Shown: piece after piece, positions 6,411-10,782 of the stretch
Layout of the letters: every line of letters starts with the position of its first letter
Position numbering within the stretch: position 1 is the first letter of the stretch
UHGV virus genome: UHGV-0072853
DNA from: a virus
Strand: one strand, 5' to 3'
DNA: 10,782 nt
Program-made: the position numbers and the translations under genes
Notes under the pieces: model-generated
Database searches by the model: none
The model's input: the letters and a program-made list of their open reading frames with translations, nothing else
Told to the model about the DNA's origin: nothing

Positions 6411-7059
6411 TGGCAGCAAATACCGAAATATTTGGGTAGTTGGCGATCTGCACGGATGCTACACGAACCTGATGAAAAAACTGGAGACGATAGGATTCGA
6501 CACCAAAAAAGACCTGCTTATCTCGGTTGGCGATTTGGTCGATCGCGGTACAGAGAACGTCGAATGTCTGGAATTAATCACATTCCCCTGGTTCCGAGCT
6601 GTACGTGGAAACCATGAGCAAATGATGATTGATGGCTTATCAGATCGTGGAAACGTCAATCACTGGCTGCTTAATGGCGGTGGCTGGTTCTTCAATCTCG
6701 ATTACGACAAAGAAATTCTGGCTAAAGCTCTTGCCCATAAAGCAGATGAACTTCCGTTAATCATTGAACTGGTGAGCAAAGGTAAAAAATATGTCATCTG
6801 CCACGCCGATTATCCTTGTGACGAATACGAGTTTGGAAAGCCAGTTGATCATCAGCAGGTAATCTGGAACCGCGAACGAATCAGCAACTCACAAGACGGG
6901 ATCGTGAAAGAAATCAAAGGAGCGGACACGTTCATCTTTGGTCATACGCCAGCAGTGAAACCACTCAAGTTTGCCAACCAGATGTATATCGATACCGGCG
7001 CAGTGTTCTGCGGAAACCTCACATTGATTCAGGTACAGGGAGAAGGCGCATGGGCATAA
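6388..7059 (+). CDS. ninI: Ser/Thr protein phosphatase, lambda NinI (PPase) type (223 aa)
   Basis: [38 protein letters not shown]...GDLVDRG...RGNHE: the calcineurin-like metallophosphatase motifs GDxHG, GDxxDRG and GNHE, as in lambda protein phosphatase. ATG at 6388 is inside the supplied longer ORF 6313..7059. Confidence 0.88.
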
Positions 7060-7568
7060 GAGAACTAAACCTCACCAAAGAGCAGCACGAGTGGCTGAAT
7101 GGCTGGCTTGAACTGTGGGGCGCATGGGTTTATTCAGGTCGTCTGGAAAAGCGCATGAGCAGCGTAATAGCGAAGTTCATGGAGAGCGTAGAGCCGGGAA
7201 GAGTTATGACAAGGCCAATGTGCAATGATGATGATGGAATGTTGATTTCTCAGGTCGTCGATTCCGTCATGTACATTGACAAGAAAGCCTTTGGCATCCT
7301 CCTCAGCTACTACGCTCATGGTTCATCTAAGCGAGCAATTGCATCCTACTATCACGCGACTGCAAAGCCACGCAAGATGTGTGGACGTGGTGGCGATGGA
7401 TGGAGAAAACCTTCACTGGCAACCTGTAGAAACGAAATTGACGACATCCTGAAAGCGTCGTTATTTGTTTTGTACCAACCAATGCAAAATGCTTTTAAAA
7501 TGCGTAAACGTGTTGAGAAAGTTAAGCATGTTGCTGTTAAAAGCCTTGACATGCAATTATCCATTTAG
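7050..7568 (+). CDS. Q: Late-gene antiterminator Q, QuuD / 933W / phage 21 family (172 aa)
   Basis: Located between ninI and the lysis cassette. Shares the pattern W-x-x-WGAW ... C-x-DDD-x-M-I ... YY-x-x-G with Q proteins of this family as I remember them (for example E. coli QuuD). Cys/His-rich. The ATG overlaps the ninI stop. Confidence 0.7.
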
Positions 7569-7575
7569 CCATAAT
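7546..7575 (+). promoter_or_regulatory. PR'-like late promoter
   Basis: TTGACA at 7546..7551 and CATAAT at 7570..7575 (18-bp spacer) at the 3' end of Q, upstream of a terminator hairpin: the expected layout for the Q-modified late promoter. Confidence 0.5.
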
Positions 7576-8165: not shown

Positions 8166-8489
8166 ATGAAGATGCCAGAAAAACATGACCTGTTAGCCGC
8201 CATTCTCGCGGCAAAGGAACAAGGCATCGGGGCAATCCTTGCGTTTGCAATGGCGTACCTTCGCGGCAGATATAATGGCGGTGCGTTTACAAAAACAGTA
8301 ATCGACGCAACGATGTGCGCCATTATCGCCTGGTTCATTCGTGACCTTCTCGACTTCGCCGGACTAAGTAGCAATCTCGCTTATATAACGAGCGTGTTCA
8401 TCGGCTACATCGGTACTGACTCGATTGGTTCGCTTATCAAACGCTTCGCTGCTAAAAAAGCCGGAGTAGAAGATGGTGGAAATCAATAA
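8166..8489 (+). CDS. S: Holin S, class I, lambda type (107 aa; antiholin S107 from Met1, holin S105 from Met3)
   Basis: [107 protein letters not shown] matches lambda S in my memory, including the MKM dual start. Confidence 0.9.
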
Positions 8490-8949
8490 TCAACGTAAGG
8501 CGTTCCTTGATATGCTGGCGTGGTCAGAGGGAACTGATAACGGACGGCAGAAAACCAGAAATCATGGTTATGACGTCATTGTAGGAGGAGAGCTATTCAC
8601 TGATTACTCCGATCACCCTCGCAAACTTGTCACGCTAAATCCGAAACTCAAATCAACAGCCGCCGGGCGCTATCAGCTTCTTTCCCGTTGGTGGGATGCC
8701 TACCGCAAGCAGCTTGGCCTGAAAGACTTCTCTCCGAAAAGCCAGGACGCTGTGGCACTGCAGCAGATTAAGGAGCGTGGCGCTTTACCGATGATTGATC
8801 GCGGTGATATCCGTCAGGCAATCGACCGTTGCAGCAATATCTGGGCCTCACTGCCGGGCGCTGGTTATGGTCAGTTCGAGCATAAAGCTGACAGCCTGAT
8901 TGCAAAATTCAAAGAAGCGGGCGGAACGGTCAGAGAGATTGAGGTATGA
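8473..8949 (+). CDS. R: Endolysin R, lambda-type lytic transglycosylase (158 aa)
   Basis: [83 protein letters not shown]... matches lambda R in my memory; 158 aa; overlaps the S stop. Confidence 0.9.
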
Positions 8950-9404
8950 GCAGAGTAACCGCGATTATCTCCGCTCTGGTTATCTGCATCATCGTTTGCC
9001 TGTCATGGGCTGTTAATCACTACCGTGATAACGCCATGACCTACAAAGAGCAGCGCGATAACAAGGCCAGTGAACTGGAGAAGGCGAACGCCACCATCGC
9101 TGACATGCGGAAGCGTCAACGTGATGTAGCAGAACTCGACGCAAGATACACAAAGGAGCTTGCTGATGCTAACGCGACTATCGAAAGTCTCCGTGCTGAT
9201 GTTTCTGCTGGGCGTAAGCGCCTGCAAGTCGCCGCCACCTGTGCAAAGTCAACGACCGGAGCCAGCGGCATGGGCGATGGAGAAAGCCCAGGACTTACAG
9301 CAGATGCTGAACTCAATTATTACCGTCTCCGAAGTGGGATCGACAAGATAACCGCGCAGGTTAACTACCTGCAGGAATACATCAGGACGCAATGCCTTCG
9401 ATGA
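8946..9404 (+). CDS. Rz: Rz i-spanin (152 aa)
   Basis: N-terminal transmembrane segment [30 protein letters not shown], then a coiled-coil-like region; same start and architecture as lambda Rz; overlaps the R stop (ATGA). Confidence 0.85.
9166..9351 (+). CDS. Rz1: Rz1 o-spanin lipoprotein, embedded in the +1 frame of Rz (61 aa)
   Basis: AGGAG 7 nt upstream of the ATG at 9166. [20 protein letters not shown] has a signal peptide and lipobox (VSAC), followed by the proline-rich [13 protein letters not shown] typical of Rz1. The supplied ORF 9160 start is an upstream TTG. Confidence 0.7.
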
Positions 9405-9579
9405 TAGCGATAATTTTACTCATCATCCTTCACATTTGGCTCTGTAGGCAGGGTGGTGATCACTTCTGGAGTGAATCCAGATTAAACATCTCATTGCTGA
9501 TGCTTGAAGTTGAGCATCTGGCGCGCGGTAAGGGGCTGCGTTGAGATAAGAGCCAGTTCATTACAAATACCAGGATTTA

Positions 9580-9603
9580 GCCTCGCATTCGCGGGGCTTT
9601 TTA
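9580..9603 (+). terminator. Intrinsic terminator downstream of Rz
   Basis: 7-bp stem GCCTCGC / GCGGGGC (one G-U pair) with loop ATTC, followed by TTTTTA. Confidence 0.6.
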
Positions 9604-9746
9604 TATCTGAATTTCACAGCGCATCTCACGCGCATATTAACGAGAGCCTTTCAGTAAGCGAGCCTGAGAATTGCCGTTATAGGTGGCGACCTCTCTCGGG
9701 CGGCTTTTCTGTGAGACAGGCTCACTTTCTAAAAGGTAAAGACGCT

Positions 9747-10244
9747 ATGAAAGCAATCACGCTTTTTAATACACCGATCCGTGTTGATGAATCAGGAATG
9801 ATCTGCCTCACTGATATGTGGAAAGCCAGTGGTAAAAGTGAATCTGAATCGCCTTACCACTACCTGCGAAACAAGCAGACCAAAGAGTTCTTAGCCGAGC
9901 TGGAGAAAAACCACGAATCTGTGGTTTTTACTGAGCGCGGTGTACACGGTGGAACATATGGCGGGAAGTTTGTTGCATACGATTATGCGGCTTGGTTAAA
10001 CCCCGGGTTCAAGTACGCGGCCTATAAAGTCCTCGATGACTACTTCACCGGAGAACTTCAGCATCGCAACAGCTTAAGTGCGCAGCTCAACATGAAATGT
10101 CATGAGTTTGACCAGAAGAAAGACATGGCGAGCTTCTGCGGACAAGGGCTGGCAGCATGGCGCTATACGAAGCCAGTGTTGGTCGCTGAGATTAACTCCC
10201 TGGCTAACCAGCTGCAGATTACGATCCCCGGGCTTCCGGGATGA
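9747..10244 (+). CDS. KilA-N domain protein (165 aa)
   Basis: ATG at 9747 with AAGG about 11 nt upstream. MKAITLFNTPIRVDESGMICLTDMWKASGK...GGTYGGKFVAYDYAAWLNPGF fits the KilA-N / APSES-like DNA-binding domain pattern. The supplied ORF 9504..10244 has an 81-codon 5' extension that I consider non-coding, since it contains the terminator. Confidence 0.65.
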   Translation: MKAITLFNTPIRVDESGMICLTDMWKASGKSESESPYHYLRNKQTKEFLAELEKNHESVVFTERGVHGGTYGGKFVAYDYAAWLNPGFKYAAYKVLDDYFTGELQHRNSLSAQLNMKCHEFDQKKDMASFCGQGLAAWRYTKPVLVAEINSLANQLQITIPGLPG

Positions 10245-10498
10245 GTGATCGTGTCATTGAATGCGCCTCCAGAGCGGGGCGCGACTTCTCAGAGTTCATG
10301 AAAGGCGAGAAGGGCATGATGGAAGCATTGGCCTCGGTGGATGAGTTTGGCGAGCAGCTGCGCCTCAACGGCTGTGTCAATCATCACTTTGTTAGCTACA
10401 TGATGCGGAACTCGATCATGCAGGCATTCATGGACATGGCAAAAGCCGAGAGGAAAGAAGAGCGCCGGCGTAAGCGAGCGGAAGCAAAAGCGAAGTAG
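10241..10498 (+). CDS. Hypothetical charged protein (85 aa), translationally coupled to the KilA-N gene
   Basis: ATG overlaps the KilA-N stop (ATGA at 10241..10244). Acidic N-terminal two-thirds and a strongly basic tail (KAERKEERRRKRAEAKAK). I recognise no domain. Confidence 0.55.
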   Translation: MSDRVIECASRAGRDFSEFMKGEKGMMEALASVDEFGEQLRLNGCVNHHFVSYMMRNSIMQAFMDMAKAERKEERRRKRAEAKAK

Positions 10499-10782
10499 CC
10501 ATTACAAAGCCTATCTACGGGTGGGCTTGATAATGAAACCGGAGTTAATTTCTGGTCACTAATTAACAGCAGTACCACGAAACAACCCAAGCCAGTAAGT
10601 GGGGAAATAACACTGGCAGCCACTGAAAGATGAACCTCCTGCCTTATGGCAAAAAAGATTCTTTGTGGTGGCGGACTGATGGAAAGACATCGGTTATTGC
10701 AGAGACCATTCAATGAGTGGTCTCGACAATGGCTTATACCCTACACGGGATAACTTAACTGATATCCCTTTTAACGGATAAA

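Follow-up and report, generated by a model that had tools for sequence, protein, structure and literature searches.

The window analyzed here is the whole 10,782-nucleotide (nt) stretch of the virus genome UHGV-0072853, and all gene coordinates are on its + strand. It covers the late region of a lambdoid phage, in which Q, a pR′-like promoter and the lysis genes S, R and Rz/Rz1 are followed by two open reading frames (ORFs), all on the + strand. Over positions 9405-10782, the window shares 98.7% identity with phage HK620 (NC_002730), where the two ORFs are named hkbK and hkbL (HK620p38 and p39) and annotated as a “KilA-N domain-containing protein” and a “hypothetical protein,” respectively; we use the same names. 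This gene pair is already known as an annotated accessory module in about one-fifth of complete Escherichia coli genomes (1091 of 5426 contain matches to the region). The unusual part of the locus is the leader RNA that precedes the pair, which is strongly covarying, pseudoknotted and outside Rfam, although it is present in textbook phages. An earlier note on this DNA, made from the sequence alone, had read the terminator, a candidate promoter and the two genes as a moron, an independently transcribed unit that could be expressed from the prophage.

The features of the locus are as follows.

9579..9603, +, intrinsic terminator (from the terminator scan): stem AGCCTCGC/GCGGGGCT, loop ATTC, then TTTTT
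9619..9633, +, leader hairpin P0 (“GCGCA box”): stem GCGC 9619-9622/GCGC 9630-9633, loop 9623-9629; found in all leader variants
9634..9645, +, A/U-rich linker AUAUUAACGAGA (from the alignments): A-rich in every variant, with no conserved TAnnnT
9646..9737, +, long imperfect leader hairpin with helices P1 to P6: minimum free energy of −38.7 kcal/mol
9711..9716, +, 3′-strand bulge GUGAGA, the 3′ pseudoknot strand: covaries with loop 9624-9629
9747..10244, +, hkbK: 165 amino acids (aa), KilA-N (7-101) and ORF11CD3 (109-161) domains by Pfam, Bro network; identical to HK620 hkbK
10241..10498, +, hkbL: 85 aa, three helices and a basic C-terminal tail; phrog_875 at 3.2e-54, no Pfam family

A structured leader RNA upstream of hkbK

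The terminator that the earlier note had placed at 9580..9603 is real. Its hairpin (9579-9598) has an 8-bp stem with 6 G-C pairs and a 4-nt loop and is followed by a T-run (9599-9603), as expected of an intrinsic terminator. Between this terminator and hkbK lies a leader RNA of ~130 nt, composed of a small hairpin and then a long hairpin that holds the Shine-Dalgarno (SD) sequence in its basal helix. The SD region AAAGGU (9732-9737) forms the 3′ strand of P1, and in all copies of the leader the SD sequence lies within this strand, with the start codon no more than ~10 nt further on. The spacer between Rz and hkbK (~170 nt) occurs in two alignable but diverged versions, a window/S107 type and an Stx/ECP1 type, and both give the same long hairpin pairing the SD sequence, with z-scores against shuffled sequences of −3.5 (window type) and −3.1. 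The same architecture was found before KilA-N genes that are only 35 to 39% identical in Xenorhabdus, Pantoea, Leclercia, and Silvania.

Helices P1 to P5 of the leader covary. In the seed alignment of 8 sequences (A7), 95.5% of the cells were paired and 11 of 25 pairs showed compensatory changes, and in an alignment of 29 distinct sequences (A9) these values were 96.4% and 20 of 25; in either case, none of 500 shuffles was as good, and slid controls of A9 gave 37 to 56% paired cells, many of the aligned leader sequences being related by descent. A9 was produced with a covariance model built from one leader type. RNAalifold, when run on A9, independently arrived at essentially the same structure (24 pairs predicted, 20 of them compensatory). 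On a plain MAFFT alignment mixing both leader types, RNAalifold failed through register shifts, a problem that was solved by the covariance model. G-U pairs were restricted to the + strand. The stem of P0 also covaries, appearing as GCGC/GCGC, GCGCA/UGCGC, AUGCGU/ACGCAU, GCGCUU/AAGCGU, and UGCA/UGCA. Directly 5′ of the start codon, the leader thus presents a conserved helix that pairs the SD sequence and carries compensatory changes, which is what is expected of an SD-sequestering leader.

The two hairpins are further connected by a pseudoknot. The P0 loop contains UCUCAC (9624-9629), to which GUGAGA (9711-9716), a conserved bulge on the 3′ arm of the long hairpin, is reverse complementary. 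Loop and bulge covary in at least seven classes:

loop UCUCAC, bulge GUGAGA
loop UCGCAC, bulge GUGCGA
loop UUCGUAC, bulge GUACGAA
loop UUCGCG, bulge CGCGAA
loop UUCUCG, bulge CGAGAA
loop CCGCA, bulge UGCGG
loop UCCCC, bulge GGGGA

A mini-alignment of the pseudoknot showed changes on both sides in 5 of 7 pairs and a one-sided change in none. We also considered whether the leader copies within one genome always differ in pseudoknot class, an idea that was ruled out by L113, L140, and L172, each of which has two copies of the same class.

The leader overlaps the sigma-70 promoter proposed in the earlier note. The two hexamers exist, with TTCACA at 9613-9618 and TATTAA at 9635-9640 separated by a 16-nt spacer, but neither the promoter scan nor conservation supports them. 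A consensus promoter scan of 8900-10782 returned no promoter-like site on the + strand; TTCACA matches the consensus at 5 of 6 positions, TATTAA lacks the key conserved T at position 6, and in many loci that retain the downstream element the −35 hexamer is swapped for unrelated sequence (GTAAAC and others). The proposed spacer coincides with P0, and the −10 hexamer sits in the A/U-rich linker. Because the P0 loop has to be transcribed in order to pair with the bulge ~90 nt downstream, the functional RNA starts upstream of ~9647. The 5/5 inverted repeat noted just before the ribosome-binding site is likewise present as letters (GTGAG at 9711-9715 and CTCAC at 9721-9725) but does not form a separate operator and is not kept in diverged copies: GTGAG belongs to the bulge, the strand engaged in the pseudoknot, while CTCAC is part of helix P3. 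By our estimate, about six 5-bp inverted repeats with a short loop are expected by chance per 1 kb.

Searches of Rfam 15 with the whole window at an E value of ≤1 returned only a chance match to a small nucleolar RNA elsewhere, and searches with 200-nt segments holding the window leader and the P22 leader at an E value of ≤10 returned generic hairpin and terminator matches far below the gathering scores; the leader matched no riboswitch, isrK, C4, or pistol family. In the searchable literature, queries on hkbK, on the leader sequences and on KilA-N together with RNA motifs found no prior description, although an older account in a subscription journal is possible. The leader DNA contains no consensus site for integration host factor (IHF), and the total in the window is at chance level.

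Portability of the leader and its cargo genes

Further copies of the leader were found by searches with the covariance model and with the small-hairpin sequence, and each stands directly before a start codon. The genes behind these copies encode other KilA-N proteins, P22_AR_N proteins with ORF11CD3, Phage_pRha proteins, three kinds of HNH_3 endonuclease (with or without AP2), a TerB-like protein, and several small unknown proteins. Leaders are present in P22, phi80, HK620, HK97-like phages, and Stx phages; lambda has no copy. Upstream of 72 of the 99 distinct leader units there is a terminator-like hairpin whose T-run abuts the small hairpin, the stem sequences varying widely.

The commonest cargo, found behind 42 of 106 copies, is a family of 257 to 354 aa resembling N15 gp59 (e.g., L032/L033, 4388-5248, and L221, 3525-4341), whose members are conserved at the N-terminus, vary in the middle, and match Phage_Tail_Tip weakly. 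The leader was also seen in Aeromonas phage AsXd-1 (94.5% identity) and Elizabethkingia phage EKP1 (76.6%), for both of which the host assignment looks odd.

A survey of gene neighborhoods, as suggested in the earlier note, placed the pair between Rz and the small terminase gene, co-oriented with them, in five phages (HK620, Stx2 phage 1717, S107, PhiR49_1, and ECP1) and between tail genes in Klebsiella phage RAH1. In RAH1 (L223, 1130-2055), a terminator, a leader, a KilA-N/ORF11CD3 gene and an hkbL homologue follow one another between the major tail and tape-measure genes, and it is this leader that adds the pseudoknot class UCCCC/GGGGA. In mEp234, the leader precedes a KilA-N/P63C gene, which is followed by an hkbL homologue. 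Dewey carries the pair after Rz in the same orientation, with no terminase gene annotated in the stretch examined; here (L002, 3368-4037), the 5′ part of the hkbK leader has given way to an HNH_3 endonuclease gene that brings a leader of its own, and only the 3′ arm is left. The SD sequence of Dewey hkbK is presumably exposed, and the locus suggests recombination within leaders as a route of cassette exchange.

The leader also precedes the rha genes of P22 and phi80. Directly upstream of phi80 rha, it is identical to that of the window (114.5 bits), and a second copy lies before phi80 ORF x171.28, while P22 rha (orf201) has a leader of the diverged type. In both records, the annotated start of rha falls inside the leader hairpin. 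An ATG that fits the model and has an SD sequence lies 69 nt downstream in P22 (NC_002371, 2645 versus the annotated 2576) and 36 nt downstream in phi80 (NC_021190, 2036 versus 2000). The same open frame gives rise to the N-extended gene calls for KilA-N proteins (213 to 217 aa; P0001, P0002, and P0005) and to ORF 9504..10244 of the window. We rejected the latter, an in-frame 5′ extension of hkbK, as a coding sequence: 1-nt indels and compensatory changes cross the extension in relatives.

The protein pair and its genomic setting

The ORF at 9747-10244 encodes a KilA-N protein, as the earlier note had recognized. hkbK matches KilA-N (PF04383) with 58.5 bits against a cutoff of 23.8 (E = 6.6e-16) and ORF11CD3 (PF10549) with 50.5 bits against a cutoff of 25 (E = 2.4e-13); it has no match to Phage_pRha (PF09669), which P22 Rha and phi80 Rha do match. 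An ORF11CD3 C-terminus follows Phage_pRha in P22 Rha, P22_AR_N in other cargo proteins, and variant KilA-N domains, showing that the N-terminal domain is swappable. Proteins of the Bro network are DNA-binding, domain-swapping and often regulatory (PMC10111431). AlphaFold2 predicted hkbK with a mean predicted local distance difference test (pLDDT) score of 84.7 as an N-terminal alpha/beta domain and a long helical hairpin (86-156) corresponding to the ORF11CD3 part. The best match of the N-terminal domain to a solved fold was weak, the APSES DNA-binding domain of Mbp1 (E = 0.04), and a PDB sequence search with hkbK gave no match.

The 85-aa ORF (10241-10498) and its ATGA overlap with hkbK (10241-10244) were confirmed, and almost every one of the ~86 close loci retrieved shares this 4-nt overlap. 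The tight coupling suggests that hkbK and hkbL form a complex. The AlphaFold2 model of hkbL has a mean pLDDT of 92.7. Residues C8, C45, H48, and R75 are invariant, H49 is nearly so, and the motif ECASRxGRDFS is invariant; C8, C45, H48, and H49 may form a metal site, and the basic tail may bind nucleic acid. hkbL had no match in Pfam, NCBIfam, PADLOC, a PDB sequence search, or Foldseek searches against PDB and BFVD. The profile searches and structure predictions that the earlier note had called for bore out KilA-N and added ORF11CD3 in hkbK and left hkbL with neither a Pfam family nor an informative structural neighbor. No defense-protein model in PADLOC matched either protein: hkbK gave only a short local match to the candidate PDC-S22 (33 bits over ~30 residues), and hkbL a nonsignificant match to QatB. 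Homologues of hkbL were found only in Enterobacterales phages, after KilA-N genes with ORF11CD3 or P63C C-termini. The possibility that hkbL is a companion of the ORF11CD3 domain was ruled out by mEp234, in which the upstream protein is KilA-N plus P63C, and by P22 Rha and other ORF11CD3 proteins, which lack hkbL.

The remaining genes and sites of the late region are the following.

7050-7568, +, Q gene: Pfam Phage_antitermQ match
7546..7575, +, pR′-like late promoter, TTGACA-18-CATAAT: 11 of 12 matches in the promoter scan; overlaps the end of the Q gene
8166-8489, +, holin gene S
8473-8949, +, endolysin gene R
8946..9404, +, Rz spanin gene, the last lysis gene and left neighbor of the module: Pfam Phage_lysis, 1.5e-39
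9160-9351, +, Rz1, embedded in Rz (from the ORF list)
10499..10782, +, conserved noncoding right flank: matches 207 phage records; contains no leader copy

Judged from its sequence, the site at 7546-7575 is a strong sigma-70 promoter-like site and very likely the late promoter pR′, which would feed S, R, Rz, and the module. A terminator scan of 10499-10782 found none downstream of the pair on the + strand, and GC content does not shift, being 0.46 to 0.55 across the module versus 0.47 to 0.55 in the lysis genes. The right flank is common to P22-like phages that have rha in place of hkbK and hkbL. In HK620, the noncoding stretch after hkbL is ~350 nt long, and the next gene, hkbM, begins just past the position corresponding to the end of the window.

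HK620 carries the pair at the same site between Rz and the terminase genes, both proteins are 100% identical to those of the window, and nothing material differs in this region. The early genes and the Q gene of the window differ from those of HK620, and the genome is therefore a mosaic. Matches to the region were found in 234 phage records, covering P22-like, HK97-like, Stx-converting, and Salmonella phages. The pair is present or absent among related phages, with alternative cargo between shared flanks, which upholds the view that it occupies a post-lysis accessory slot. The ~170-nt segment from the Rz stop codon to the terminator (9405-9578) accompanies this Rz allele (CUS-3, epsilon34, Sf101, and mEp213) and is not present in Stx-type loci; in this segment, some records annotate a 50-aa ORF (9392..9544). 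Contig JARKOR010000234.1, which has been binned as “Candidatus Nanosynbacter,” contains this enterobacterial phage region with 94 to 99% protein identity, and its assignment is probably a binning error.

Interpretation and comparison with known systems

On balance, we lean toward reading 9579-10498 as a mobile passenger cassette of the late operon, read by way of Q, in which the leader restrains translation of a probably dose-sensitive protein pair that is made only late. This reading builds on the observed anatomy, conservation and covariation of the RNA, the burial of the SD sequence, the portable nature of the leader, and the domains found in the proteins. The cassette would comprise, in order, the terminator, the pseudoknotted leader of ~130 nt, hkbK, and the translationally coupled hkbL. 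Lambdoid Q proteins render RNA polymerase resistant to terminators. Q-modified polymerase starting at pR′ (7546-7575) would ignore the terminator, whereas unmodified polymerase, as in a lysogen, would halt there. The read-through RNA would be poorly translated, with the leader sequestering the ribosome-binding site, and the outcome would be a low or conditional, late-only output of two proteins whose excess is probably harmful, as with Rha. With a terminator upstream and the ribosome-binding site buried, the arrangement suggests that the module is silent except under Q-antiterminated late transcription. By analogy with Rha, we infer that hkbK and hkbL may act as a DNA-binding complex late in infection, on phage, host, or competitor DNA.

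Several points weigh against this reading. Q dependence and translational attenuation are deduced from the anatomy of the locus, and 27 of the 99 leader copies have no recognizable terminator. Because a covariance model was used to fit them, the covariation alignments lean toward the modeled structure, and the mini-alignment of the pseudoknot was registered by hand. The pseudoknot and the conserved bulge, linker, and apical loop exceed the needs of a simple attenuator, which hints at a switch or a protein-binding site. In addition, hkbL is not found next to distant KilA-N homologues, and there may be a weak promoter upstream of the small hairpin.

The features in excess of simple occlusion are those that a regulated switch would explain, namely, a pseudoknotted sensor that opens or locks the SD helix in response to a signal such as a small molecule, a protein, or a trans-acting small RNA (sRNA). 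The conserved unpaired elements (the bulge, the A-rich linker, and the apical CUCGGG and GGCGA) and the pseudoknot would suit such a sensor, and a translationally inactive leader before an antirepressor-like gene of a lambdoid prophage offers a precedent (PMC4825925). The leader described here is also found before rha of P22 and phi80, genes whose toxicity varies with the IHF status of the host, and it could be the cis element through which rha depends on IHF. However, no conserved alternative “ON” fold was found, Rfam returned no riboswitch, isrK, or C4 match, and the leader DNA lacks an IHF consensus site; we consider a switch rather unlikely. The stability of the long hairpin can also be taken as the mark of a processing site, at which RNase III or a similar enzyme would cut the upper stem, part the SD arm from the 5′ arm, and thereby turn on translation and determine how stable the mRNA is; the lambda N leader and the T7 early mRNAs are examples. 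An interrupted duplex of ~30 bp with an asymmetric bulge and −38 to −48 kcal/mol fits this idea, and unfolding so stable a structure plausibly requires an active mechanism, but the pseudoknot and the conserved loop sequences are left unexplained, and we regard processing as improbable.

Two further explanations remove the leader from translation. The moron reading of the earlier note gives the pair a sigma-70 promoter of its own (−35 at 9613 and −10 at 9635), insulated by the terminator, and a conversion, exclusion, or antidefense function expressed from the prophage. Hexamers at a 16-nt spacing, one of them a 5/6 match, do exist, the upstream terminator is real, and the mobile cassette is found at moron-type positions, that between tail genes in RAH1 among them. 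Against this, the scan found no + strand promoter, the −35 hexamer is not conserved, the small hairpin needs to be transcribed and would be omitted by a start near 9647, the SD sequence is buried, and there is neither a downstream terminator nor a compositional difference. What stands of that reading is a KilA-N protein in a tightly linked, portable accessory pair in the post-lysis slot; independent transcription and prophage expression are not supported, and we give the moron reading as a whole little chance of being correct. Alternatively, the hairpin could act as DNA, serving as a recombination or homing site that moves cassettes, especially HNH endonuclease genes, between phages. The leader does mark mosaic junctions, in Dewey the 5′ part of the hkbK leader was displaced by an HNH gene and the leader belonging to it, and HNH_3/AP2 genes are frequent cargo. 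Yet the compensatory changes, in which G-U pairs occur solely on the coding strand, the invariable placement of the SD sequence in P1, and the loop-bulge pairing speak for a folded mRNA, and most cargo genes are not nucleases, so that a DNA-level role appears very improbable.

A bolder proposal than our preferred reading of a Q-read, translationally restrained cassette is that the terminator and hairpins constitute an undescribed, portable class of regulatory RNA that, within the late operons of temperate phages of enterobacteria, gates mobile accessory genes (for Bro-network regulators, HNH endonucleases, and others) on a specific signal and is also the cis element of the rha toxicity observed decades ago for P22 and phi80 in hosts without IHF. 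We regard this proposal as possible but doubtful. If the leader controls translation, this would explain how potentially toxic passenger genes are carried inside an antiterminated lambdoid operon, correct the start codons now annotated for the rha genes of P22 and phi80 and for the N-extended KilA-N calls, and provide a testable handle on the Rha/IHF phenotype. The leader also marks cassette boundaries, which is useful for annotating prophage accessory genes.

Compared with morons in the sense of Hendrix and Juhala, the pair shows insertion between otherwise adjacent genes and presence or absence among phages; a promoter of its own, a downstream terminator of its own, and a distinct base composition were not found. 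The lambdoid morons (lambda bor and lom and HK97 gp15) are likewise inserted between conserved late genes and variably present, and bor occupies the same slot. In contrast to the window pair, which is co-oriented with the late operon, lambda bor is on the opposite strand. In phage T4, homing-endonuclease and late genes (I-TevI, e, and soc) have a hairpin over the SD sequence that keeps such accessory or selfish operon genes translationally silent on read-through transcripts, and the repression is lifted by a late promoter lying within the hairpin. The leader described here differs from the T4 hairpins in having no promoter evident inside the hairpin and in its additional pseudoknot.

The Gifsy-1 IsrK/orf45-anrP system of Salmonella has an antirepressor-like gene behind a terminator, and its read-through RNA is translationally inactive with the ribosome-binding site hidden (PMC4825925). 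It resembles the window locus in its lambdoid late region, its upstream terminator, and its folded read-through RNA over the ribosome-binding site. The window leader differs from isrK in that it has no sequence or Rfam match to it, no leader ORF, and no identified trans-acting sRNA, and its pairing is an intramolecular pseudoknot.

The closest comparison is with rha. According to PMC4936722, which cites Mozola and Friedman (1985) and later work, rha belongs to the late operon, and its product prevents lytic growth in hosts deficient in IHF. P22 and phi80 rha are like hkbK in occupying the slot after Rz in the late operon and in having a terminator and leader upstream. Unlike hkbK, the two Rha proteins have Phage_pRha rather than KilA-N as their N-terminal DNA-binding domain, no hkbL-like partner follows rha, and phi80 Rha has no ORF11CD3 match. 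P22 Rha consists of Phage_pRha and ORF11CD3, and the C-terminal domains of P22 Rha and hkbK share 35% identity. Given the slot, leader, and C-terminal domain shared with P22 Rha, hkbK is therefore a domain-swapped analogue of Rha and not a member of its family.

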